Virus record (IMG/VR): IMGVR_UViG_3300006990_000018
Reading direction: 5' to 3' (one strand)
Origin: an uncultured virus (IMG/VR IMGVR_UViG_3300006990_000018)
Taxonomy: Duplodnaviria > Heunggongvirae > Uroviricota > Caudoviricetes
DNA length: 64,000 bases
Part shown: one piece after another, positions 12,310 to 49,561 of the stretch
Position numbering within the stretch: the first letter of the stretch is position 1
Layout of the letters: each line of letters opens with the position of its first letter
Position numbers and translations under genes: made by a program
Notes under the pieces: model-generated
Database searches by the model: none
What the model was told of the DNA's origin: nothing
The model's input: the letters and a program-made list of their open reading frames with translations, nothing else

Positions 12310-14115
12310 ATGGGCGACGAGAACGAACGCTTCCAGCGCATCGTGAGAGCGCCTGCTGACGACCCGTTCATCATCAGCCCACCCAAGGTCCTGCTGGACG
12401 AGGTGGAACGGCTGGGACAGGACCCACGGCGTCCAAGGACGGCCGTTGCACGCTGGGCCTCCCGTCTATGGGCCGAGACCCAAAGGGAGCGCATACGGCG
12501 TGCTCCTGCGCCCTCCATGAATAACGCTCCATCCGAGAAGGAACTCATGGAACGCCCCGCTCACTACCCGACCGACTTCGGCCTTGGCCTCATCCCGTTC
12601 CCGAACGAGGTGGGTGGATGGGTGCTGGATAAGACCGCCACGACCTGCTACACAAGCCTCTCCGTCCCCCGCCCGTTTGACCCACACCTACACGGAGACC
12701 TAACCGCAGAGACCGTTGGGTTCGGCTACATGTATCACGGGACCTCTCCGTTCCCCGACCGATACGACATCGTGAACCGAAGGGGTGGAGGTCCACGAGG
12801 CGGGTTCGCTTTCACCAGCGGACCTACCGAGGGCAATTATCCCTCCACTATCCTACCCTCACCGACCTTCAACCTCGGCGACCTTGGGTTTAGCGACGGC
12901 GGCTGGAATCCCGAGGGCCTGCAATACACGAACCGCCCCCGTCAAATGCGACTCGGCGGTCTCCGCAACGGGTGGCCGCATCAAGTGTTCTTCGTCCGCT
13001 CACGGCAGGTATTCTTTCGCAACCTATACGGCCCAATAGCCTCGGACGAGGCAACGCCACGAGCACCCACCGTTGTGCTGAACGGAAGCAAATCCATTCA
13101 CGGCGTTCTCTCAGTTTCATCTCGCCACGAACTCAACGCGCCCCGTCGGCTGACGGTTCGTATTTCATCGGTCGTCGGTCGGAGAGCGGGAGTCGCCCAA
13201 GTCGGGGACACCATCCAAGTCTATGCGGCTCCACGGCGCTGGGCGAACCCACCGCTGATTTTCACGGGCTTCGTGTCCGACCTTGAGGAGACCACGAATG
13301 AGGTCGTCTTGACCTGCCTTGACCCGCTCGGGTTCCTCACCAACGAGACCATTCTGAACGATGAACTGCTCGTCCGAGGGGACGCCGCATCGGTGATAAA
13401 GGGCATCGTGGCTCAATCGTCATACGCTCCGCCTATTGGCCGTATTAGCACCGAGAGCCTCGTGTCCGTGCCGTCGGGCCTCGTGCTCAAGGGCAAGACC
13501 TTGCTGGACGCAGTTCAAACCGTGCTCGGTTTCATCAACATAGCACCAGCGCCCATGACGATTTATGCCGACGGCAAGGGCTACATTCACCTACGCTCGC
13601 TCGCCGAGGTGGACGACTCAAGCCTCACTCCTCTCGTGGCTGGGCGTATGCCCCGCACAGCCGTGCCGCAGGACTTTTATCCAACCAGCGTGGAACGGGT
13701 CAAGGGCGACCTTGACATTTTCAATGTGATAACGGTTCAGAACAACTCGGCTGGGGTCTCATTCACCTACCCACCCGAGGACGACGCCTCATATCCCCGC
13801 CGTCCAGTCCATCGGGTTGTTCAAGAATCCACAGTCCAAGACGAACGGCAAGCAGAGCAGTTCGCCCGCTTGATGTTGGCCAATAACGGGCGAACCCAAG
13901 AGCAATTCATCATTGAGGGCCTCCCAGAACGCTTTGACATTCGGGCGGGTGATGTGATGGAGTTTGCATCGTCGGCGGGTATCGCTGGCCGCCACCGAGT
14001 CTTTTCGGTTGGTTGGGAATTGACACCCGAAGGGGCGCGTATGACGCTCTCCGTGGGCCGCCAATCGGCGAACCTTGTGGCCACCTTGCGATTCGCAAGC
14101 GGCCTGTCGTTGTGA
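12310..14115 (+). CDS. Baseplate hub / tail tip protein (gp27/GpD/Tal-like)
   Basis: IFTGFV..LEE....LTCLD, YADGKG, NVITV and DIRAGDV..RVFSV..ELT..MTLSVG pattern typical of hub proteins. Confidence 0.7.
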   Translation: MGDENERFQRIVRAPADDPFIISPPKVLLDEVERLGQDPRRPRTAVARWASRLWAETQRERIRRAPAPSMNNAPSEKELMERPAHYPTDFGLGLIPFPNEVGGWVLDKTATTCYTSLSVPRPFDPHLHGDLTAETVGFGYMYHGTSPFPDRYDIVNRRGGGPRGGFAFTSGPTEGNYPSTILPSPTFNLGDLGFSDGGWNPEGLQYTNRPRQMRLGGLRNGWPHQVFFVRSRQVFFRNLYGPIASDEATPRAPTVVLNGSKSIHGVLSVSSRHELNAPRRLTVRISSVVGRRAGVAQVGDTIQVYAAPRRWANPPLIFTGFVSDLEETTNEVVLTCLDPLGFLTNETILNDELLVRGDAASVIKGIVAQSSYAPPIGRISTESLVSVPSGLVLKGKTLLDAVQTVLGFINIAPAPMTIYADGKGYIHLRSLAEVDDSSLTPLVAGRMPRTAVPQDFYPTSVERVKGDLDIFNVITVQNNSAGVSFTYPPEDDASYPRRPVHRVVQESTVQDERQAEQFARLMLANNGRTQEQFIIEGLPERFDIRAGDVMEFASSAGIAGRHRVFSVGWELTPEGARMTLSVGRQSANLVATLRFASGLSL

Positions 14116-14316
14116 AGAAAAGGTGAGGCGCAGGGAGCGAGAACTTTGCCCTGTTGGGATTCTCGGTATGCGCCTCGGGGCGAGCACAGGGAGCGAGAAC
14201 TTGGCCCTACACGGGATTCTCGGTATGTGCTCTAAGCGTTCCCTCGCCGCCTATCCATCCCATCTCCCCACAGGTGTGGTTCTTGGGCGTGGCGGGTTCG
14301 GCTTGGGTCTGCTCTG
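14116..14316 (-). ncRNA. Putative structured ncRNA of about 200 nt with two tandem domains
   Basis: Intact minus-strand promoter, no usable ORF, duplicated ~51-nt covarying domain, U-tract end. Confidence 0.6.
14125..14232. repeat. Tandem ~51-bp hairpin repeat (14125-14176 and 14182-14232)
   Basis: Shared core GGGAGCGAGAACTT.GCCCT...GGGATTCTCGGTA closed by GAGGCGCA/TGCGCCTC and GAGCACA/TGTGCTC. Confidence 0.9.
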
Positions 14317-14359
14317 ATTAGTCCTATGAGCCACTCCTATATGAAGGTGTCGCTCAAAA
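14317..14359 (-). promoter_or_regulatory. Minus-strand family promoter
   Basis: Reverse complement reads TTTGAGCGACACC-TTCATATA-GGAGTGG. Confidence 0.75.
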
Positions 14360-14615
14360 GGGTTGGACCCCCGCCGACGCTTCACCATTCAGCAAAAACG
14401 CACCCCCTCAACACCTTGCGATGTGAGGTTGGGTGGGCGTGCGGCGGGGTGGCCCCCAAGGGTTCCGTGTGCATGAGGGCGGTGGAATTGCTCCGCCTTG
14501 CATCCGCTCGTAGGTATTTCACCTTCCGCTAAACACATCGGTCCCTTGAGGGCCTGTCCTTGAATCCCCCCGACTCGCATCGGGAGGTGCTTCGGTCGGG
14601 GTTGTTGCCCCAACA
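14357..14615 (-). ncRNA. Putative structured ncRNA of about 260 nt
   Basis: Promoter with no ATG; GNRA-capped hairpins (GCGA, GCAA); 5'/3' terminal pairing; UUUU end. Confidence 0.62.
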
Positions 14616-14659
14616 ATCTATCGTAGCGGTCGCCCCTATATCAATGTGTCGGTCTCAAA
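14616..14659 (-). promoter_or_regulatory. Minus-strand family promoter
   Basis: Reverse complement reads CCGACACA-TTGATATA-GGGGCGACCG-CTACGATAGA. Confidence 0.8.
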
Positions 14660-14763
14660 GGTTTAATTCAAGGGGCTTTGGGCAAAAATCCGACATGAAG
14701 AAACACTCGGCATATAGGTTCTGAGCGTTCTCAAGGCCAAAAATCGCAAAAAGCCCCCATCAT

Positions 14764-14864
14764 TAGCCCCCCTATGGGGGGCTACCCCCAATGATTGAAA
14801 CAGACTTACACACTAACACACACACACAACAAACAAACTGTGTGTATGAAAGAGGAGAGGGGTC
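14764..14864. other. Candidate replication origin element
   Basis: Perfect 9-bp inverted repeat at 14764-14784 plus a (CA)n/(TG)n element homologous to 44321-44373, just upstream of the helicase gene. Confidence 0.4.
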
Positions 14865-14909
14865 GGTCTGCATCATTGTTAAGAGGGTGGGGGTAGGCTT
14901 GAGGTGAGC

Positions 14910-16904
14910 ATGGCCCCCGAAATTATCGTCAGTCAATCCACCGAGTCGTCGTCCGACTTCCTCTTTGAAGCCGCCGACCTACCCGTGAAATTGACCTTCC
15001 TGTCGTCCACAAAGGGACGCATGGAGTTCAGCGCTGAGGTGGATGGCGAACCCAAGGGCAAGGTCAATGTCCTGTCCCAGCACTCCATCGCTCGGCTCGC
15101 CAAGTCGTCGCTCAAGGACGAGGGACTCAAGGACGAGTTCACCGCCACGATGCTCAAGGCTGGCGTGATTCTCCGAGAAGGCACCTATGTCGTCGCCACC
15201 ATGGAGGACAAAACAACCGCCGAAGTCATGTCGCTTGAGGGCGAGTCATCCACCTACGGGGACATTGAGCCAGCGACCATCGGACGATTCCTCGGCGAGC
15301 GCTTCCTGTTGGACCGTATCAACGAGATTCTCCACGAGAGTCGTGAGACCCCGTTCGTCGGAGACGATGCTAACCTGCTCCTCACCTTCCTCGTGTTCTT
15401 GTCCTGCAAGACGGACAACCCGCTCAACCTTGAGATGATTGGGCAGTCATCCAGCGGCAAGACCTACATGACCTTGACCGCTCGCAACGGCTTCCCCAAG
15501 TCCATGATTATGGTTCTCGCTGGGGCCTCCAAGGAGGCGCTGAAATACGACTACGACGAGGTGGATGAGGACGGAAACTTCATCGTCAATGTGGACGGTC
15601 GTTGCATCGTCGTCTTGGAAAAGGACGAGTCATTCGCATTCATTCGCAAGATGAAGCCCATCATGTCGGGAGACGACACGGAACTCGTTTGGAAAACTCC
15701 CATCAAGAATGAGTTATCGGGGGAAATAGAGACGAGGGACTTCATCATCAGAGGTCGTCCGTCGTTCATCACGCTCACCACTCGCAACCCCAGCGAGCAG
15801 GAGCAAATCACACGGCAACTCATCATGACACCCGACACGACGGTGGAGAAGGTGAATGAAGTGGTCAAGAACGCCTTGCTGGCCAAGGCACGACCCGAGA
15901 CCTTCAAGGTGCACCCCGACCTCAAAATGCTTCAAGCGTCCATGCTTTCACTCAACCGCTATCGGGTCCGCAACATTTTCGCCCCGCTCATGGTGGACTT
16001 CTTCCCCGCTCGCAACGCTCAGCACCAGCGAGACATCGGCAAGGTGCTCTCCATCATTGACGCCGTGGCTCTGCTCCACCAGCACCAGCGACCTGTGCAA
16101 AAGGACGAGCACGGGGACGAATACCTGCTGGCCTCCGTGGAGGATAATGTGATAGGGCTTATGCTCTGCGACCTCGTTCTCCGAGCCAGCCTGTCGGGGG
16201 TGCCCGACGACACTTGGACCGTATATCAGCAAATGACCGCCATGGAGGAAGCCAAGCGCCCGCTCACCGAGGACAACATTCTCCAATGGCTCGGCATCCA
16301 CGCCTTCACCATCAGCAAGAACGCCCTCAAGGAGAAGCACCTCCCAACGCTTGAGGACGCTGGCCTCATTGAGGTCGCTCGTCGTGGCGGAGGGCGCGGT
16401 GGCGGCAAGAAGGCATACCGCCTCGTCAAATCTCGCATCGGTCTCATGGACGACTACGCCCTGTCCCCCCTGTTCGTGGAAGCGGCGGCGGCGAACCTAC
16501 ACGACCTCGCCAACGAATACAACGATGTTTTGACCAGCGCCGAACCTGCCGCTCACCGATTCCCATTGAAGGCGAAGGACCAATCCCTTCTCCGCTCCAT
16601 CGGATGCCCCAGCAAGGAAGCGTCCGAGGTTTGGCGGTCTTTGTTCCTCCCATCCTACCTACGCCCTGCTGGACGCTCAACGCTCCTGTGGGACATCGTA
16701 GGAAAGGACTCCAAACACCGAGACGGATTGTTCGGTGGGGACGCTTGGTTCAACGCTACGAGCGACGCAACAGCGGCATTGAGCAAGCGCCGAGAAGTCA
16801 AGGAAGCCATCAAGACTGCCTCGCAGTCCACCACTTTGGATAACGAGGACCTATGGGAAGCGATGATGGATGCACACCTGTCGGGACTTGAGGATGATGA
16901 TTGA
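14910..16904 (+). CDS. MCM-like AAA+ ATPase, putative replicative helicase, with a wHTH-like C-terminal region
   Basis: Walker A GQSSSGKT, IVVLEKDE Walker B-like motif, ITLTT sensor, ITRQ arginine finger; adjacent to the SSB. Confidence 0.7.
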   Translation: MAPEIIVSQSTESSSDFLFEAADLPVKLTFLSSTKGRMEFSAEVDGEPKGKVNVLSQHSIARLAKSSLKDEGLKDEFTATMLKAGVILREGTYVVATMEDKTTAEVMSLEGESSTYGDIEPATIGRFLGERFLLDRINEILHESRETPFVGDDANLLLTFLVFLSCKTDNPLNLEMIGQSSSGKTYMTLTARNGFPKSMIMVLAGASKEALKYDYDEVDEDGNFIVNVDGRCIVVLEKDESFAFIRKMKPIMSGDDTELVWKTPIKNELSGEIETRDFIIRGRPSFITLTTRNPSEQEQITRQLIMTPDTTVEKVNEVVKNALLAKARPETFKVHPDLKMLQASMLSLNRYRVRNIFAPLMVDFFPARNAQHQRDIGKVLSIIDAVALLHQHQRPVQKDEHGDEYLLASVEDNVIGLMLCDLVLRASLSGVPDDTWTVYQQMTAMEEAKRPLTEDNILQWLGIHAFTISKNALKEKHLPTLEDAGLIEVARRGGGRGGGKKAYRLVKSRIGLMDDYALSPLFVEAAAANLHDLANEYNDVLTSAEPAAHRFPLKAKDQSLLRSIGCPSKEASEVWRSLFLPSYLRPAGRSTLLWDIVGKDSKHRDGLFGGDAWFNATSDATAALSKRREVKEAIKTASQSTTLDNEDLWEAMMDAHLSGLEDDD

Positions 16905-41358: not shown

Positions 41359-41471
41359 GATTGAACCGATACCTGCGGAACTTGCCGTTGATTTAGCCGA
41401 TACTTGCGACACTCGGCATGGATTTAGCCGATACTTGCGAGGTCGGAGGTTGATTTAGCCGATACCTTCGG
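41359..41471. repeat. Four ~20-bp direct repeats at exact 31-bp spacing
   Basis: GATT(T/G)A(G/A)CCGATAC(T/C)T(G/T)CG at 41359, 41390, 41421 and 41452. Confidence 0.9.
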
Positions 41472-41947
41472 CAGGACGCGTTGTTTTGGTCTCGTGTTGG
41501 CTTCGCCCGCTCGGTCGGGCTGACGCTCAAGGGGTTATAAACCTTTAGGTGTAGCGTTCTCTTTAGGTCAAAGGAGAATGTAGGGGAGGAAAGATTATAT
41601 ACCCCCTGCGGCGGGGGTCGGCGTGGCGGGTGCTTTGGCCGCTTGCGCTTCATCTGCCCCATGTTGGGACCTAAAGCATTTGACCCTATAAAGGTTTGGG
41701 TGTGGCGTTCTCCCGTCGGCGAAACGGCCCCGCCGCCCGTAGGTTGATGGGCTGGGGGTATATAGTCTTTCCGTTCTGATAGTCTCCCGAGGTCGGACCC
41801 TATCATGAACGGGCCGCCCCTCTGGCCTTCGGAGGGCCTCGGAGGACCCCCGAAAAAGCCGAAAATGCAGGCCGACCTATATCCCCCTATAAACCTATCG
41901 CAATTCTGCGCCGAAACCTTTAAGGTGGGAGGCGGTATAGGACAACC

Positions 41948-42469
41948 ATGGCGCAACAAGCGAACCAAACCCCAGCCCGAACTGAAACCACCCTCGTTGT
42001 GGAGGAAACCACCTCCCTCGTTGGCCTTCAAGCCATCGCCAAGGCGATGGATAAGGTCCACACCACCAACAACAAGGCAACCGTCCAAGCCCTTGGCGAG
42101 GACTCCGCCACCCCCTTCATGCTCACGGGCGTTTTGACCGTCGGCGAAGAGACCGCCCTCATTGACGAGAGCGGCATGATTGAAGTCGGCGCCTCCTTCC
42201 AGCGTGCTCAGACCTCAGCGTTCAAGACCACGAACGCCATCCGCGACGCTCTCGCCGTCATGGGCATGCACGCCCCCAAAATGGCCGAAGCCATCATGGC
42301 TTCCATGCTCGCTTCCAAAGACGGTGGAGACTCCGCCGCCGCACTTGAGGCCAACGGCTTCAACATTTCCGAAGCCGCCCTTGACCGAGCCAACGCCTTC
42401 ATGGCCTCCCTCGCCACCAAGAGCACCCGCACCGTTTCCGCCGCTGTCAAGGTCAGCCTTGACGACTGA
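41948..42469 (+). CDS. Hypothetical Ala/Thr-rich protein
   Basis: CCGAAACC-TTTAAGGT promoter; strong codon bias. Confidence 0.75.
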   Translation: MAQQANQTPARTETTLVVEETTSLVGLQAIAKAMDKVHTTNNKATVQALGEDSATPFMLTGVLTVGEETALIDESGMIEVGASFQRAQTSAFKTTNAIRDALAVMGMHAPKMAEAIMASMLASKDGGDSAAALEANGFNISEAALDRANAFMASLATKSTRTVSAAVKVSLDD

Positions 42470-42860
42470 GACCGACAGACACGCCCAGACACGCCGCCCC
42501 TGCCCCTTCGGGGGTGGGGACCCTGCGAGGTCCCTCCCAGCGGGAGCAAGGCCCACAGGGACGCCCACAGGGCCACGCATGACCCCCAGCGGGAGCGAGG
42601 CCCCCAAGGAGCGCCCGAGTGCACGCAAGGTCCGCCCGAAAGGCCCGCCGCCCATATCCGATGGGCTGACGGCCTATAAAGGTTTTGGACCTACACTTTC
42701 CTTTTCTCAAGAGAACGCCACGCCGAAAGGTTTATAGGGTGTCAGCGCCCGTGTTCAAGTGGAGAGACGACTTCCAACGGGGCGCGTTGGAGACGGCATC
42801 TCCCCGAGTGCCCTCGCCCCTGCCCCGACCCCCACGGGTCCTCGCATCAATCTAAGGGAA

Positions 42861-42927
42861 CGGCTGACACCCTATAAAGGTTTCGTTCACCGATAGGTTT
42901 AATAGGGGGGACCCCCTACGATAAAAC
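42861..42927. promoter_or_regulatory. Back-to-back divergent promoter pair (type example)
   Basis: GCTGACACCCTATAAAGGTTTCG (minus-strand TATA) abuts CCGATAGGTTTAATAGGGG (plus-strand TATA). Confidence 0.7.
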
Positions 42928-43269
42928 ATGCGAGACCTAACCCGCCTAACCCAAGCCGAGACCCGCCGAATACCTGCCCTATACGCTACCGACGGCGTGC
43001 CCATGAGCGAGAAGGTCGCTCAAGCCCGCTACTTCTTCGGCGGCCGCTCTGCCTTCTATGTCCTTGAGCGAGACCCCAGCACGGGCGAGATGTTCGGCTT
43101 TTGGATTTCCGAGCACGGCAACGACATGAACGAACTCACCTACGCCGACGCTGAGACCATGCGGTGTGTGCGAGCCGAGAAGGACCGCTTCTTCTCCCCG
43201 AAAAACCTCATTGAGGCCGTCAAGAGCCGAGAGGGTGCGAACGCCGTCCCATCATGGTGGAGTGAGTGA
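42928..43269 (+). CDS. DUF2958-like protein
   Basis: IPALYATD..K....FF....FYV.E.D...EMFGF....ELTY pattern. Confidence 0.55.
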   Translation: MRDLTRLTQAETRRIPALYATDGVPMSEKVAQARYFFGGRSAFYVLERDPSTGEMFGFWISEHGNDMNELTYADAETMRCVRAEKDRFFSPKNLIEAVKSREGANAVPSWWSE

Positions 43270-43272
43270 AAC

Positions 43273-43503
43273 ATGACCTACCGCCCATCATTCCGAGCAC
43301 AGACCTACGCCAAGGGCCGCCTTGAACTCGGCTTCAAAATGCACTACGACGAATCCTACACCGTTTCCATGATGGTTGAGGTCGCACTTGAAGAGGACTT
43401 CTATTTCGGCGTTCGTGGCTCACCAGACACCGCCGACGAGGATGCCGTCAAGGCATGGGCTACCGACCTGTATCGTGGCCGCCTCAACCCTAACAAGTAT
43501 TGA
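43273..43503 (+). CDS. Hypothetical protein
   Basis: Operonic ATG. Confidence 0.65.
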   Translation: MTYRPSFRAQTYAKGRLELGFKMHYDESYTVSMMVEVALEEDFYFGVRGSPDTADEDAVKAWATDLYRGRLNPNKY

Positions 43504-43731
43504 GTGGGGGGCATCTTCTATACCCCGCCCATGACGGGCGGGGCTACGCTGAGCAATAGCCCCAGCGGGAGCGAGGATTTCAATTCCTGAGATTTTCAGT
43601 CGCCCCGAATCCGTCAAAATTGACAGACCCAGCGGGGCGCGTTGGCCCGTTGCCTATAACCGATGGGCTGACAGCCTATAAAGGTTTCTAACACCGAAAG
43701 TTTTAATATAGGGGACCTCCTACGATTGAAC

Positions 43732-44115
43732 ATGACGGACACCCCGACACCCGCCCACCGCTTTGCCCTCGGACAGACCTACACCACGCTCAACGCCACA
43801 TGGCCTCTGAGAGACTACGATAGGAAGTTCAACACCACGGTTGCGGGTCATGCCCGCATCATGAGCATGGAAGTGTTCACGACCTCCACAGGCCGTGAAA
43901 TCCACCGTGCTCATTTCTCCATCACCTACACCCGAGCCGACGGCTCCACGAGTGCTGGCGGCCTCTTCTCCCGTGAAATTGAGGTCGTGCCCTTCCGCAA
44001 GGCTGAAGCGCTCATCCTTGACACCATCCACGACGGTTGGTGGTGGTCCGCCGACATGACGGCTGAGGAGTCCCCTCGGGTCGCTGAGTTCACGGATTGG
44101 CTCGCCGAGCAATAG
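43732..44115 (+). CDS. Hypothetical protein
   Basis: Family promoter. Confidence 0.72.
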   Translation: MTDTPTPAHRFALGQTYTTLNATWPLRDYDRKFNTTVAGHARIMSMEVFTTSTGREIHRAHFSITYTRADGSTSAGGLFSREIEVVPFRKAEALILDTIHDGWWWSADMTAEESPRVAEFTDWLAEQ

Positions 44116-44320
44116 GCCGCCCGTCTTTGTAGCAACGGCCCCGAGCGGGGCGCGTTAATGTTGGGGGCTTTTCGCCCGTTTGTCGGGTCCAGCCACCGCA
44201 GTTCAAACCCCGTGGCCACCGTTCAAACCCCACGCCAACAGGACAAACCGCCCGAAAGCCTGCAACATTGTTTGGCCTCGCCGTGCCCCGTTTGGTTATA
44301 ATGGAAAATAATTCAGAGGA

Positions 44321-44435
44321 GACCCCCTTCCCCATTTCACACACACACCTTGTCATGTGTGTGTGTCATAGTGCATTCTATTCATTTAATTTAATTGAAA
44401 ATAAGATAATATAGATAAGAAAAGACTATATACTC
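44321..44435. other. Candidate origin: (CA)n/(TG)n inverted repeat plus an AT-rich tract
   Basis: Homologous to the reverse complement of 14811-14864; followed by a strongly AT-rich stretch. Confidence 0.45.
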
Positions 44436-44531
44436 CCATCTCATGGTCTATCGGTATGCGGAGCCTACAAGCGGGCGGGACCGATACCTTTAAGGTGGGA
44501 GACCCCGTGGCTTAGAACAGAGGGAACAAAC

Positions 44532-44951
44532 ATGACCTGCCTAACCCGAACCGAAAGCCAAGCCTACAACACGACCCGCGCCAAGAAGCACATTCGCGCC
44601 GTGCACTATCACGCCGCATTCTATGACGCTCCCAGTCAATATGTTGGCGACGACGGCATAAGCCAAGACTCCGCCAACATTCTTCTTCGCCACGGCGACG
44701 CCAGCCTCCACATCACCGCCGACGGCCGAGCCTACCTCTCCGCCACCAAGACGGGTTCACGGAACTACGGCGGGAACTCCTGCTTGCGAGACGGCGACCG
44801 CAAGGGCGACGACGGCCGCTATGTGGTCATTCACGAGGTCCCACGCTACAACCGCACCGCTGGCCCCGTGGACGCCCACGCCGCACTCATGGCCGTCATT
44901 GACTCCATGGTCATGAAGGGACACCGCTTCTCCATCAGCAAGATGTTTTGA
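44532..44951 (+). CDS. Hypothetical protein
   Basis: Promoter plus short leader. Confidence 0.7.
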   Translation: MTCLTRTESQAYNTTRAKKHIRAVHYHAAFYDAPSQYVGDDGISQDSANILLRHGDASLHITADGRAYLSATKTGSRNYGGNSCLRDGDRKGDDGRYVVIHEVPRYNRTAGPVDAHAALMAVIDSMVMKGHRFSISKMF

Positions 44952-44979
44952 GGCCGACGGCCGCACCGATTCCAGCACC

Positions 44980-45022
44980 TTTGAGCGAAAGTCTTTAATA
45001 GGGGATTCCCCTACGATAGACC
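44980..45022 (+). promoter_or_regulatory. Family promoter with no downstream ATG
   Basis: TTTGAGCGAAAGTC-TTTAATAGGGG...CTACGATAGA. Confidence 0.8.
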
Positions 45023-45385
45023 AGAGCGCACCTGTCCCCTCAGCGGGGGTGGGGGTGCCGACCCGAGATTGAGAACCTCGCCGTCCCGCACAGGGATAAG
45101 CGGCGAGCGGCCAACCGTCGCTTCTGGTGGCGGGGACTCCGAGAGTTCTAAGGTGCAGGGAGAAGGCTTAGCGGCCAAACCCTCAACCTCGGCAGGGAAG
45201 CCACGGCGGCCCTGTCGGCAAAGCCTCGCTTCAACGATGAGGGCGAGAGACGGCACCAATCCCGCACGGGAACCAATGGCCAAAACAGGAACCTCGGGGG
45301 ACTACTCCTCCCCAGAGAGCCACGCCCAATAGGCAGGCGTGGACCCGTGCCTACTGCGGAGGAAGGGGGTCGGCGCTGGCGCTCA
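45023..45385 (+). ncRNA. Putative large structured ncRNA of about 360 nt
   Basis: 5'/3' closing helices, many hairpins, two possible pseudoknots, own promoter, no leaderless ORF. Confidence 0.68.
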
Positions 45386-45568
45386 CATTGAGCCGATACT
45401 TTAGCCGATACCCGTTGTTTGGCGCGTTGTTTGTGGATGCGGAGTCTCCCCCCGTGCCCGCTCCTCTCGGGGTCCGCCCCCGCTCCTCGCAATATGAACA
45501 GGGAGCCGACAGCCTATAAAGGTTTGCTTGACCGATACCTTTAAGGGGGCAAGCCCCGTGGAGCAAAC

Positions 45569-45808
45569 ATGGAGAACCAAACCTTCACCCAACACGCCCG
45601 CCGAGAAGCCACCAGCACCCTCGTTCATTACTTGGACCAAGGAGAGACCAACAAGGCCCTTCTAATTGGAATCACGGCCGCTCGCCTCTTTGAGTGCTAC
45701 CTTCAAGACACGGCGGAGCCTTGCCCCTACGCATTCATTGACGCCCGCCGCTGGGCCATGGCCGAAGTGTCAGAAGCCACCGCCAAGCCTTGGGCCGTCC
45801 TTCAATGA
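45569..45808 (+). CDS. Hypothetical protein
   Basis: Promoter-linked ATG. Confidence 0.68.
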   Translation: MENQTFTQHARREATSTLVHYLDQGETNKALLIGITAARLFECYLQDTAEPCPYAFIDARRWAMAEVSEATAKPWAVLQ

Positions 45809-45847
45809 GTCGGCAGGCTCAAAGAGGTGGCCTGCACGGGTCGCCTC

Positions 45848-46177
45848 ATGATGCCCGAGCAACCCAAGCGCCGACAGTCCCGACGAGAGCGGCGAGAGTC
45901 CAAGCGAGCGACCCGACGCCTTCGGCGGTTCCGTGCTGGCGAGGTTCTGCGACTCCGAAAGGATGCCGTTCGCTTCACGCTCTCTGAGGCCATCGTCATG
46001 GCCTCCCTGCGCCGTGAGGCCGCCGCCATCGCCGAACCTACCGACGAGACGGGGAAGCCTGCACAGCGCACCGTTCAACGCTTCCATGCGTGGGCGGGCC
46101 AACTGAGGGCGGTTGATTCGTCTCGGTGGCGGTGGTTCGTGGACGGCGACAGAATCGCCGCATTTGAGAACCTTTGA
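45848..46177 (+). CDS. Arg-rich hypothetical protein
   Basis: Open frame after GAGGTG; start uncertain. Confidence 0.5.
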   Translation: MMPEQPKRRQSRRERRESKRATRRLRRFRAGEVLRLRKDAVRFTLSEAIVMASLRREAAAIAEPTDETGKPAQRTVQRFHAWAGQLRAVDSSRWRWFVDGDRIAAFENL

Positions 46178-46214
46178 CCGAACTCTTTATGTAGGGGCAC
46201 TTTCTGGCCGTAGC

Positions 46215-46403
46215 ATGAACCAAGTCCCCTACCAGTCCAGCGAGGCGAGCGCCGACATTATCAACGCCTACGCCAGCCAATACCGAACATATGCCCGTCA
46301 AGGTCCGAGCCGCTTGGTCCGAGCCATGAAGTTCATTGGACCCATCGCCGTTTTGGTGTTCCCGCCGCTTACTCTCATCGCTTTGATTATCGTTCACCGC
46401 TGA
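46215..46403 (+). CDS. Small membrane protein
   Basis: Own promoter; C-terminal hydrophobic helix. Confidence 0.6.
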   Translation: MNQVPYQSSEASADIINAYASQYRTYARQGPSRLVRAMKFIGPIAVLVFPPLTLIALIIVHR

Positions 46404-46451
46404 GCGGTTCGCCCGATACATCAGAGCGCCGCCGTTGATTTTGCCGAGGGC

Positions 46452-46500
46452 AAAACCGACGGACTGAGGGGCCGCCGCCCTATGAGTCGTCGTCGTCCAC
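46452..46500 (-). ncRNA. Putative small RNA, family copy A
   Basis: TATA..TGTTCAA-GTGGACGACGACGAC...GGCGGCCCCTCAGTC..TTTT. Confidence 0.5.
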
Positions 46501-46577
46501 TTGAACACGGGCGACGAAAGCACATAAAGGTTTTGTTCACCGATACCTTTAAGGTGGGACGCCTCGTGGTTTGAAAC

Positions 46578-46793
46578 ATGGGAGACACCCGAACACCAAA
46601 GAACGCCCGATGGGCCACAGGCCAGCAAAAAGTCCACCTCGCACACCCCTTAACGGGTTGTTGCCTTGGATGCAAAAAGAAGGTCGCCGCATGGCCAAAC
46701 GCTCAAGATAAGACCGTTGAAGAAGTCAAGAACTCGGACTTTGGCCTCTGTTCCTTCGTCAGCGACTTTTGGCTTGACCGTTTCACCAAATGA
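46578..46793 (+). CDS. Small Cys/His protein
   Basis: Promoter-linked ATG. Confidence 0.62.
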   Translation: MGDTRTPKNARWATGQQKVHLAHPLTGCCLGCKKKVAAWPNAQDKTVEEVKNSDFGLCSFVSDFWLDRFTK

Positions 46794-46948
46794 AGCCGCC
46801 CGTCCGCCCAGAAACTCCGCCCCTCGGGGCGCGCTGGGTCTCGCAGGCCGATTTTGGCCGATAGGCTCGCAGTCATGCGTTTAGGCCCGAACGGGTCCAG
46901 AACCTTTGAGCGAACCTTTGATATAGGGGAGCCTCCCGTATTCACATC

Positions 46949-47257
46949 ATGCGAAACAACACACACGCCCGAGACCGAATGATGAGCCGCCTCACCGAGA
47001 GCGAGCGTTCAGAGGTCAAAGCCACCGTGGCCGCCGTCCGAGAGGCTGGCCTCATCACCCCCACCGAGGACCTCGCCATTTACGCCGCTCGCCTCTCCCG
47101 CTCCCGTGCGGCTGAGTGCGGTTCAAACGGTCAAAATGTCGTGGTCATGGTCCGCCGTGGAAAAGTCGCCACCGTCATGCTCCGCCGAGACAACCAACCA
47201 CCCACCCGCTCCGCTCTCCGAGTGGACCGAGTGCTTCGCATGAACGGGGGCGTTTGA
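46949..47257 (+). CDS. Hypothetical protein
   Basis: Promoter-linked ATG; HARDRMMSR..VVVMVRRGKVATVML is reminiscent of small RNase-like folds. Confidence 0.68.
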   Translation: MRNNTHARDRMMSRLTESERSEVKATVAAVREAGLITPTEDLAIYAARLSRSRAAECGSNGQNVVVMVRRGKVATVMLRRDNQPPTRSALRVDRVLRMNGGV

Positions 47258-47258
47258 G

Positions 47259-47393
47259 ATGGCCAAGGCCCAAGGACGACCCAACAAGAAGCACGCCAAC
47301 CGCAAGGCTGGCCACCACTACAAGCGCACGCAGGGCGGCCCACGCCGCACGGGCGTTCATCGCCTTGAGAACTGCCGCCTTCACGGCCGCTGA
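47259..47393 (+). CDS. 44-aa highly basic peptide (not in the ORF track)
   Basis: MAKAQGRPNKKHANRKAGHHYKRTQGGPRRTGVHRLENCRLHGR. Confidence 0.5.
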   Translation: MAKAQGRPNKKHANRKAGHHYKRTQGGPRRTGVHRLENCRLHGR

Positions 47394-47434
47394 GGTCTGG
47401 ACGGGGCGCTCTCGGGCGCGAGCCGCCGACAGCG

Positions 47435-47483
47435 AAAAACGCACGACTGAGGGGCCGCCGACCCCCCGCTCATCATCATCCAC
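47435..47483 (-). ncRNA. Putative small RNA, family copy B
   Basis: TTTATA..TGTTCAA-GTGGATGATGATGAG...GGCGGCCCCTCAGTCGTGCGTTTTT. Confidence 0.5.
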
Positions 47484-47559
47484 TTGAACATAAGGCTGAC
47501 AGTCTATAAAGGTTTTGATGACCGATAGTTTTATAGTGGGAAGCCTCGTGGATTGAATC

Positions 47560-47841
47560 ATGGGAACACAAACCATGACCGAGCAAGCAAGCGGATTCTC
47601 CACGGAGTCCTTCACCGACCAAGGCCAACACGGAGCCGTTAATATCGTGGTCCGCCGTGGTGCATACGGTGGCGGGAACTCCGTCGGCGTGCACATCAGC
47701 AACGGCAAAGGCGCCAGCGTTTCCGCTCACATGAACCGAGCCGAAGCCATCGCCATGGCTCAAGCCATCATAGCCGCCACGACCGACCAAGCGACCGAGG
47801 ACGCCTACACCTTCCCCCACCGCTCCGAGGTGAACGAATGA
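47560..47841 (+). CDS. Hypothetical protein
   Basis: Promoter-linked ATG. Confidence 0.68.
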   Translation: MGTQTMTEQASGFSTESFTDQGQHGAVNIVVRRGAYGGGNSVGVHISNGKGASVSAHMNRAEAIAMAQAIIAATTDQATEDAYTFPHRSEVNE

Positions 47842-48124
47842 GCGCCGCCGCCGCTTGGAACTACCTCGCCACCGCTGACACGGGCGAGATAACCCACATC
47901 TGCGTTGTCTTGGCCTTCGTCGTGTTCCCCTTCGTTCAAGGCGTCTGGGAGTCCGTGTCGTCCCTTGTGGAGCGTGTGCGCTGATGCTGGCGGACATTGT
48001 GCTCATTCTCTCCTTCCTGCTCATGTGGGCGGCTGTGTGCGCTGAGGACGGCGACCTCTGAACGGGTTCACGCCAGAACCTTTGAGCGAATCCTTTATGT
48101 AGGGGATGCCTCCCATCTTGTATT

Positions 48125-48637
48125 ATGAGCAACCTCGCCTTCCACCGCACCACCGAAAACGGAGCCGCCCAAATCCTCGCCCACGGCATCAAGTCCATGG
48201 CTTCTCAAGGCTGGGACCTTCCCGACTACAAAGAGGACGCTGAGGGCTACGAGAACGCCCGCCAATTCATCGCCAGCGCTGGCTTCAAGTTCCAAATCCG
48301 CCCGCTCTCGTGGATTAAAATGTATGAGGCCGCTGAACCCAACTGCTGGATGATGCGCCGAGACTTCCGAGAAGTCCAGAGCCGCTTGAACTCCGTCTTT
48401 GTCCGCACGGGCGGCGTTGAGACCTGCTGGGCGCCCGAGGGATGCACCATCGCTATTGACCTTGACAAAGTGGACGCTGAGCGCACCACGGACGGCTATG
48501 GCCAATCTGACAACGGGACAGGCGTTGAGGACTTGCAGGTGTTCGGAGACATCCCAGCCAGCGCCGTCCTTGGTATCGTGTGCGATGACTGGATGACCGC
48601 CCACGGCTTCACCGTTGAGAGCGGCGGCCTTGAGTGA
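48125..48637 (+). CDS. Possible ADP-ribosyltransferase-fold protein
   Basis: FHRTT...A..I...GI at the N-terminus, SVF strand, GDIPASAV near the C-terminus. Confidence 0.45.
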   Translation: MSNLAFHRTTENGAAQILAHGIKSMASQGWDLPDYKEDAEGYENARQFIASAGFKFQIRPLSWIKMYEAAEPNCWMMRRDFREVQSRLNSVFVRTGGVETCWAPEGCTIAIDLDKVDAERTTDGYGQSDNGTGVEDLQVFGDIPASAVLGIVCDDWMTAHGFTVESGGLE

Positions 48638-48701
48638 GCCGTTCAGCGTGCTCGGCGACGCCCTCGGGCGAGCGCTGGCGCTGGCGCTGTCTCTGATGCG
48701 G

Positions 48702-48751
48702 AAAAACGCATGACTGCGAGGCGGTGGCCCCTTCGGGTCATCATCATCCAC
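48702..48751 (-). ncRNA. Putative small RNA, family copy C
   Basis: TTTATA..TGTTCAA-GTGGATGATGATGAC...CAGTCATGCGTTTTT. Confidence 0.5.
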
Positions 48752-48847
48752 TTGAACATAAGGCTGACAGCCTATAAATGTTTCGTGCCTATACTTTCAG
48801 AACCTTTGAGCGAATCCTTTATGTAGGGGTGGCTTCCATGAGGAACC

Positions 48848-49561
48848 ATGGCGAACACCACCCTAACCCTAACCTTCCCTAAGCGAGTCGGCGGCGCCGC
48901 CGTCCGTGCTGATGTGGCCGACCTCATCCACCGAGTCATTGACTCCGTGGCCGCTGACCTTGACTTGAGCGAAAACACCCTTGAAGTTCACTTCACGAAC
49001 GACCGCAACACCCACCGACCCGCACACCTTGCGACCTCCATGAAGGTCCTTCAAGACGAGCGCCAAGGACGCTATGTGAACATTGAGGCCATTAGCACCC
49101 TCGGCGTTGGCTTTGATGGCTCCCTTCCTCACATGAAGGTCAATCTCCAAGGCGTCAAGGCCGCAGACTATGACGGCTTGACACCCTACACGGCGAACCA
49201 TGTTATTCATGAGACGCTCCACTACCTTCAAACCGCCCTCGGCGTCATGTCCTCAACGCAGACCGTCAAGGGCTACGGACGAAGCGTGAGCCGCCGCACA
49301 ACGACCACATGGAACCATGGCCCAGCCTTCGCCCTCAACCACGCCATCCGCACGGCCGCAGGTCGCAACATGATGAACGAGCCTCAAGAGAGCGACGAGA
49401 GCACCACCTACGACCGCCGAAGCATCACCTACGATGAAATGCCGTGGGAGCACCAAGCATGGCGAGGAGCCTACATTCTCGGCCGTGCGCTTGGCTTCGC
49501 ACCCTGCGAGGAAACCCGAGCGACCTACCGACGATTCATGAAGAAGGCGGGTCGCCGCTGA
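48848..49561 (+). CDS. Zincin-like metallopeptidase
   Basis: HETLHYLQ (HExxH) and downstream MPWEHQA. Confidence 0.75.
   Translation: MANTTLTLTFPKRVGGAAVRADVADLIHRVIDSVAADLDLSENTLEVHFTNDRNTHRPAHLATSMKVLQDERQGRYVNIEAISTLGVGFDGSLPHMKVNLQGVKAADYDGLTPYTANHVIHETLHYLQTALGVMSSTQTVKGYGRSVSRRTTTTWNHGPAFALNHAIRTAAGRNMMNEPQESDESTTYDRRSITYDEMPWEHQAWRGAYILGRALGFAPCEETRATYRRFMKKAGRR

Follow-up and report, generated by a model that had tools for sequence, protein, structure and literature searches.

Large structured non-coding RNAs are rare, and most of the known classes do core biochemistry. The GOLLD, ROOL and HEARO-type RNAs, large structured RNAs of phages and prophages, constitute Rfam families, and the virus-carried ones (GOLLD, ROOL) are still largely unexplained; the textbook viral RNA serving as a protein-bound scaffold is the phi29 prohead RNA (pRNA). 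Here we describe RNA-A, a unit of about 360 nucleotides (nt) on the plus strand of a 64,000-nt stretch of DNA (the window) from an uncultured virus of the class Caudoviricetes (IMG/VR record IMGVR_UViG_3300006990_000018). RNA-A is very probably a genuine gene for a non-coding RNA of a new family. The new family is of a known general kind, the large virus-borne structured RNAs, and is the first that we could find for what we read, from its genes and promoters, as a marine archaeal virus. In the portions of the literature returned by full-text searches, no account of non-coding RNAs from viruses of marine archaea was found, and term look-up in the retrieved parts of two magrovirus papers (PMC5434244, PMC11706807) gave tRNAs only, with no structured non-coding RNA; the parts of PMC5434244 consulted report two tRNAs in group B magroviruses.

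Promoter, transcript and strand

Four distinct versions of RNA-A, all from one viral lineage, were compared: those of the window, of L004 (a 26-kb IMG/VR contig reached through neighbouring proteins), of L010 and of L009. The unit in the window consists of the following parts.

44980-45022, plus strand: promoter of RNA-A, with a GAGCGAA (44983-89) resembling the transcription factor B recognition element (BRE), the TATA element TTTAAT (44994-99), the palindrome AGGGGATTCCCCT (45000-12) and an initiator region up to A45023
45023-45385, plus strand: RNA-A transcript, with the presumed 5' end at A45023, a conserved body to 45377 and the 3' end at an uncertain point between 45377 and about 45435 (T-rich)
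45024-45029, plus strand: 5' strand of the outer helix, GAGCGC, pairing with GCGCTC at 45379-45384
45031-45053, plus strand: 5' leader hairpin of 9 base pairs (bp) with the loop UCAGC, invariant in all versions
45054-45064, plus strand: 5' strand of the end helix P-term, 11 bp with 45367-45377
45065-45263, plus strand: core A, a five-way junction closed by P2 (45065-71 with 45257-63)
within core A, plus strand: helices P3 (45072-76 with 45145-49), H2 (45077-45107), H3 (45115-33), H5 (45151-89), H6 (45190-45217) and H7 (45224-49)
45151-45217, plus strand: H5 and H6, the best conserved part, with 29 nt (45187-45215) identical in all versions; neither predicted hairpin varies
45264-45366, plus strand: 3' domain W3, present in the window, L004 and L010 and absent in L009, with one-sided changes only
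within W3, plus strand: helix GCACGGG/CCCGTGC (45264-70 with 45344-50), hairpin b (45293-45317) and hairpin c (45320-42)
45367-45377 and 45379-45384, plus strand: 3' strands of P-term and of the outer helix

The preliminary description of this locus had noted a full promoter of a viral family with no ATG behind it, which was confirmed. A regular-expression scan found 12 promoters of shared design on the plus strand at 41.9-48.8 kb, and the one at 44994 is alone among them without a start codon, AGAGCGC being found there instead, from 45023. Counted from the initial T of TATA, the start codon comes 24-32 nt later in 10 of the 12, the genes of which are therefore leaderless; the promoter at 44489 has its ATG at +44. 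The stop of the preceding open reading frame (ORF), 44532-44951, lies ahead of the RNA-A promoter, the core of which is identical in L004 and L009, and transcription by the host RNA polymerase presumably begins at A45023. The promoter cluster (41900-48850, plus strand) drives small leaderless genes, and each of its 12 near-identical promoters carries a palindrome of the GGGG-N3-4-CCCC type, likely an operator, between TATA and the start site. Ahead of most family promoters a CCTATAAAGGTTT element is conserved, which resembles a divergent promoter on the opposite strand.

The folding of the unit is strand-specific. On the plus strand, 45023-45385 folds at -174.8 kcal/mol (z-score, z, of -3.23), which none of 100 dinucleotide shuffles equals, whereas on the minus strand z is -0.50 and 30 of 100 shuffles are equally good; the L009 RNA behaves in the same way (z -3.08 on the plus strand and +0.02 on the minus strand). 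Folding is thus better than in the shuffled controls on the plus strand only, in the window and in L009. Among 1052 composition-corrected 363-nt segments over the 64 kb, the unit has a residual z of -2.84 and ranks seventh (six score lower). One-sided stem changes at 45054, 45128, 45261, 45262 and 45326 all leave G-U, G-C or A-U pairs on the plus strand and would be A-C mismatches on the minus strand, in agreement with the strand-specific z-scores; the earlier choice of the plus strand as the RNA, made from its many G-U pairs, is borne out on both counts.

The region has a G+C content of 66%, and ORFs of 87-114 amino acids (aa) are present on both strands, the longest on the plus strand being 45069-45332 (TTG start, 87 aa). 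In L004, a 2-nt deletion and a 1-nt insertion inside the RNA shift this frame and the ORFs lie in other frames; in L009, indels of 166, 11, 3 and 1 nt within the RNA give a different ORF pattern again. As the indels break every frame in the relatives, no reading frame is conserved. Relatives that keep the frame 45069-45332 rather than the pairings had been named in advance as evidence against an RNA; L004 and L009 do the reverse, keeping the pairings and shifting the frame.

Part of the stretch was present in 20 of 22 listed sequencing runs, labelled marine or seawater metagenomes, and six RNA libraries from six studies each contained 0.22 of the sampled words. Two RNA runs (X15, X16) and two DNA runs (X13, X14) were mapped to the RNA region as assembled contigs. 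Each RNA run yielded a single contig there: in X16, one of 409 nt covering 45031-45377 plus 63 nt of L004-type 3' flank and ending about 8 nt short of a T4 run (counted on the L004 letters), and in X15, one of 343 nt covering 45032-45375 with no loose ends. The RNA contigs begin 8-9 nt past the predicted start site, and the flanks 44850-45011 and 45390-45650 have zero depth in both RNA runs, while the contigs of the DNA runs extend into the flanks, up to 5.9 kb. The discrete transcript near 45023-45385 that had been predicted is accordingly seen in both RNA runs, at the level of assembled contigs.

Conserved core and exchangeable periphery

A search with the RFC-like protein of the virus gave four loci, one of them extending to the RNA, and an alignment of eight relatives of the protein encoded upstream of RNA-A led to five metagenome loci, four of them with the RNA. 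L007 is of the window type (99.9% identical), L010 and L011 are of the L004 type (L010 differs from L004 at three positions), L009 represents a third lineage, and L008 stops short of the RNA. Identity to L004 is 93.9% across the 413 nt of promoter and RNA, 74.3% in the upstream gene and 88.4% in the stretch downstream; the spacers on both flanks of the RNA are unalignable, and similarity ends sharply past 45377. The RNA body differs from that of L004 by nine substitutions and two indels.

A covariance model of the core (R1) recovers the versions of the window, L004, L010 and L009 with 205-237 bits (E<=1e-50) and matches nowhere else in 138,732 bases; it matched none of five cultured haloviruses, with the positive control G002 at E 8e-60. 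Searches of 44900-45600 by blastn and of 40-50 kb by megablast against 50,697 phage records gave no match. In the viral collection, exact-pattern scans with three RNA motifs and the alignment of the downstream protein returned the known contig only, and the upstream protein alone gave no further locus; the promoter-plus-leader pattern was not found in the genome-collection scan. A 22-mer hit in a 465-aa ORF of a Lachnospiraceae metagenome-assembled genome was taken as chance, there being no likeness outside the 22 bases. The Rfam scan proposed in the preliminary description (Rfam 15, 4227 models) gave no match at gathering scores in the whole window, L004 or L009, and at E<=10 the same three sequences gave only three or four chance-level hits of 11-16 bits (mir-3569, CRISPR-DR29 on the minus strand, lncRNA, snoRNA, xrRNA). 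As to an RNA anti-CRISPR or a mimic of a CRISPR repeat, the Rfam comparison gave the CRISPR-DR29 score only (14.7 bits, E 7.2, minus strand), and the repeats of the real host may differ from that model.

The core was derived with RNAalifold on the 200 nt shared by the versions, L009 included, and its pairs were counted there and on the four-sequence R1 alignment. It comprises 67 pairs, with 97% of the cells paired. Double compensatory changes were found in nine of the 67 pairs (one in P2, three in H2, one in a short helix, two in H3 and two in H7); with the partners slid by 1-3 columns 0-1 double changes were counted, and in shuffle controls the mean was 2.4 (+/- 1.4) to 3.7, with none of 500 reaching nine. 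As judged from the aligned versions, the 200-nt five-way-junction core is shown to be maintained by compensatory substitutions. Within it, P3 (AGAAC 45072-76 with GUUCU 45145-49) carries the hairpins H2 and H3, and A45066 in P2 faces a mismatched C in the window and a pairing U in L004, L010, L009 and the RNA contigs. The stem of H2 has an A-rich bulge of 4 nt on its 3' side and is followed by a 3-bp CCC/GGG tip with a small loop; the bulge, AUAA, is kept in L009. H6 holds an AA/GG internal loop.

The complementary ends reported earlier (GAGCGC 45024-29 with GCGCTC 45379-84, and 11 bp between 45054-64 and 45367-77) are present. The strands of the putative outer helix are invariant in L004 and L009, the 3' strand being 90 nt farther off in L004, and in P-term the change G45054>A, found in L004 and in all four sequencing runs examined, turns a G-U pair into A-U. 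Among the internal stems of the preliminary description, CTCGCCG/CGGCGAG and CCGTCGCT/GGTGGCGG are backed by compensatory change, GCAGGG/CCCTGT and GGTGC/GCACC are invariant among the versions and stay candidate stems, and CCACGCC/GGCGTGG has one wobble-compatible change (C45326>U in L004). GGACTC/GAGTTC is not supported, being broken in L009 (GGACGA). Of the TCCC-GCAC-GGGA hairpin said to occur twice, the second copy (45260-71) likewise lacks support and is better read as the 3' strand of P2 followed by GCACGGG. The pairing of GCACGGG with CCCGTGC is retained, as an ordinary nested helix closing W3 rather than the pseudoknot envisaged for it. The complementary TAGGCA and TGCCTA (45330-35 with 45348-53), invariant in the three sequences that have them, form a candidate pseudoknot.

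The periphery of the RNA is exchanged between the relatives. L009 has neither W3 nor the 3' strand of the 11-bp end helix and carries an insertion on the other side of the core, and in the L004/L010 lineage a second unit precedes RNA-A.

L009 3493-3659: insertion of 166 nt between the 5' strand of P-term and P2, flanked by the direct repeat AGCGCCGA
L004 1882-2180: RNA-B of the L004/L010 lineage (unit about 1920-2180, ~260 nt), directly upstream of RNA-A

The L009 insertion folds with z -2.09 for 150 nt of it and has its own 8-bp CGCACGGG/CCCGTGCG helix. RNA-B has the promoter and the first 16 nt of RNA-A, a similar 5' hairpin, and a hairpin with T4 at its end; its fold has z -1.53, it has no Rfam match, and the duplication RNA-B/RNA-A is also found in the DNA runs X13 and X14. 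In L004, 90 inserted nt that include a T4 run also lie between the RNA and the conserved block downstream of it. Two homologies were considered and rejected. A descent of the L009 insertion or of RNA-B from a moved copy of W3 is not supported, the local alignment scoring 20 against 17.9 +/- 2.6 for shuffled sequences and a model of W3 (R2, filters off) matching neither; and RNA-B is not detectably related to the core, as its MAFFT alignment was unconvincing, R1 gave no match and its z was only -1.53.

The viral genome around RNA-A

The window encodes a minor-tail protein, a family B DNA polymerase (PolB), an RFC-like AAA ATPase, an ERCC4-HhH nuclease, a PrimPol-like protein, a helicase and a CbbQ/CobT-like pair. 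The best named relatives of the polymerase, at only about 24% identity, belong to cultured haloarchaeal tailed viruses, and a look-up of PolB gave clusters of both viral and archaeal sequences. Acidity is not a feature of the predicted proteins, whose isoelectric points (pI) are mostly 5-9. We take the virus to be tailed and to infect a marine, non-halophilic archaeon, the assignment to archaea following from the leaderless TATA/BRE promoters and the replication genes. An ORF of 2038 aa at 2765-8881 matches no Pfam family at E<=0.001.

The protein encoded upstream of RNA-A (44532-44951; 139 aa, basic, pI 9.2) occurs in eight clusters only, at 65-100% identity, and precedes RNA-A in all four loci that reach the RNA. 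It belongs to no Pfam or PHROG family; its structural model has a predicted local distance difference test score (pLDDT) of 73, and the best match in the PDB (E 0.064) has a weak winged-helix/MarR likeness.

Other non-coding features of the window are the following.

45386-45507, plus strand: conserved non-coding block behind RNA-A, with two CCGATAC repeats (45392-45414) and T-rich runs (45414-35), conserved in L004, L009, X13 and X14
about 14613-14398, minus strand: candidate RNA gene, z -2.86, ending at a T4-T5 run
about 14315-14120, minus strand: candidate RNA gene, z -3.57, ending at a T4-T5 run

The T-rich runs at 45414-35 are probably terminators. The block 45386-45507 was rejected as a second RNA, being unstructured on either strand (z +1.14 and +0.55). 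A tandem repeat at 41359-41471 (3.6 copies of 31 nt) contains TTTAGCCGATACC, and the motif occurs twice more behind RNA-A, at 45392-45414; many family promoters likewise have CCGATAC as their BRE-like part. The repeats at 41359-41471 and 45392-45414 may be origin iterons or regulator sites. The stretch adjoining the tandem repeat, 41504-42100, ranks second in the window for excess folding on the plus strand and is strong on the minus strand too (z -3.66 and -3.27 in the background scan).

Both candidate RNA genes lie in a gene-free gap on the minus strand (14120-14900) between the ORFs 12310-14115 and 14904-16904, which folds with z -7.0 (20 shuffles) and contains two family promoters on that strand. 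The candidate at 14315-14120 ends in two tandem hairpin units of ~50 nt, the outer stems of which differ by compensating changes, and the design of H2 recurs in it twice. The contig G001 is 100% identical at 14120-14900 and hence carries no covariation information. These two further candidates suggest that the phenomenon is wider than one element.

Possible functions and comparison with described RNAs

RNA-A may be a trans-acting protein-binding scaffold or decoy, a reading that we offer tentatively and hold to be rather more doubtful than probable. A transcript started by the host RNA polymerase at A45023 would fold into the 5' hairpin, the P2-closed core and an exchangeable accessory domain; in the window virus this domain would be W3, held against the 5' part through the end helix of 11 bp, and in the relative L009 the insertion of 166 nt at the opposite side of the core. 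The folded particle would then act in trans, the invariant H5-H6 and the bulged H2 being its most likely protein-binding platform, as a scaffold or decoy RNA made from a regulated promoter. Such a role fits better than that of a catalytic RNA needing its entire architecture preserved, because H5-H6 are invariant, with the AA/GG internal loop in H6, the periphery is freely exchanged and the H2 design recurs. Taken as a whole and with the mechanism included, the statement that a stable, non-coding, highly structured RNA of some 355-430 nt, from an uncatalogued family of tailed viruses of a marine non-halophilic archaeon, has in RNA-A its own independent gene falls slightly short of an even chance.

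Several observations weigh against these readings. All nine double changes come from L009, that is, from one branch, and the core structure was derived from the very alignment on which covariation was counted. The comparative model, with P2 and P3 forced, lies 6.2 kcal/mol above the single-sequence optimum of the window, and the isolated core folds with z -1.90 only. Between the window and L009 the core, at about 78% identity, is no more conserved than the upstream gene (78.8%). The RNA contigs are unstranded, assembled and of a depth of about 5, so that their coincident ends are a weak hint, and in a 59-nt DNA contig of run X14 position 45077 is followed directly by 45258, ACC standing on either side, which would delete nearly the whole core; genomes without the core may therefore exist, and the contig itself may represent a variant in the minority or an artefact of assembly. 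L009 does not preserve the UCCC/GGGA tip of H2, and the count of the H2 motif (three found and 0.29 expected, with 2 of 100 shuffles as high) is post hoc. The upstream protein is not a supported RNA partner, its structure matches being only weak, and we infer the scaffold or decoy mechanism from the anatomy of the RNA alone, no partner, target or activity having been identified. Finally, the new class from archaeal viruses proposed in the preliminary description is supported, but limited to four sequences of one marine lineage, to which the scans of the genome collection added nothing real and those of the viral collection one contig only.

A bolder reading, which we consider unlikely, would make RNA-A the RNA subunit of a new viral ribonucleoprotein, or a catalytic RNA, and one of at least three separately transcribed structured RNAs per genome sharing a bulged-hairpin handle for a common protein. 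If it were true, these viruses would depend on an RNA toolkit without counterpart in described phage or archaeal virus systems.

It is improbable that RNA-A is a ribozyme or self-processing RNA, with the junction core as an active site cutting or joining itself or another RNA. In size and complexity the RNA, with its five-way junction and a further domain, compares with large ribozymes, the junction strands and H5-H6 are invariant, and W3 contains a candidate pseudoknot; however, W3 with this pseudoknot is dispensable in L009, no ribozyme family of Rfam 15 matches even at E<=10, and the RNA contigs cover the whole unit with no joint or internal end. The earlier term "ribozyme-sized" speaks of size only; no catalytic feature was found.

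A cis-acting transcript, either a long leader regulating the downstream gene 45569-45808 or an RNA activating or priming a nearby replication origin at the CCGATAC repeats, is likewise given little probability. It would agree with the same orientation of the downstream gene, with the recurrence of the CCGATAC repeats behind the RNA in the 41359-41471 array, and with the relative-type RNA contig that extends 63 nt past the conserved body. Nevertheless, a family promoter of its own precedes the downstream gene (TATA at 45540, ATG at 45569, 29 nt past the TATA start), and in all three lineages this complete promoter stands between the RNA and the gene, which does not fit a riboswitch or cis-acting leader. 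Moreover, the contigs of both RNA runs end ahead of the downstream gene, and in L004 the 90-nt insertion with the T4 run splits the RNA from the block, which is unstructured.

A captured host RNA (RNase P, signal recognition particle (SRP) or similar) that has diverged outside the reach of the Rfam models is very improbable, even though in its size, its paired ends and its layout of two domains with multiple junctions RNA-A is broadly similar to RNase P RNA. The archaeal RNase P RNA model (RF00373, RNaseP_arch) gave no match at E<=10 in the window, L004 and L009; a dedicated RNaseP_arch search was negative for the one record searched (the L004 contig) and positive in 11 of 14 control genomes. 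No SRP, transfer-messenger RNA (tmRNA) or ribosomal RNA model matched at E<=10 in the Rfam scans, the fold of RNA-A is multi-branched, unlike the rod-like helix 5 of archaeal SRP RNA, and ARAGORN found no tRNA or tmRNA genes in the 64 kb, so that the original failure to match the element to tRNA, SRP, tmRNA or RNase P was upheld. The swapping of peripheral domains between close relatives would also be unusual for such RNAs. The absence of any functional RNA, the locus being a coding gene with an unusual start or a G+C-rich spacer folding by chance, is largely refuted and keeps a very slight probability: the ORFs of 87-114 aa on both strands and the G+C content of 66%, which favours spurious stems and ORFs, are outweighed by the unconserved frames, the lack of a start codon at the start site of the promoter, the compensatory changes, the strand-specific folding, the sharp conservation edges and the RNA contigs confined to the unit.

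With a defined promoter and start, a core supported by covariation, domain-swap variants and a signal in environmental RNA, RNA-A is a concrete target for folding, structure and partner work. Three described systems serve for comparison. Like the phi29 pRNA, RNA-A is virus-encoded, separately transcribed and folded, and would act in trans with proteins; unlike the pRNA, it is twice as long and shows no link to packaging genes, and no relation in sequence or structure is expected. RNA-A shares with archaeal RNase P RNA a similar size, paired 5' and 3' parts and two domains with multi-helix junctions, and differs from it in the lack of an RF00373 match, in the 3' domain and end helix being dispensable in L009, and in the absence of tRNA genes from the window. 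Like GOLLD, ROOL and HEARO, it is large, ornate and virus-borne, forms its own transcription unit, is conserved in structure and had no known function at discovery. It differs from them in having no covariance-model match, in its smaller size (about 360 nt), in belonging to an archaeal-type virus with TATA/BRE promoters, and in the accessory domains being swapped between close relatives.

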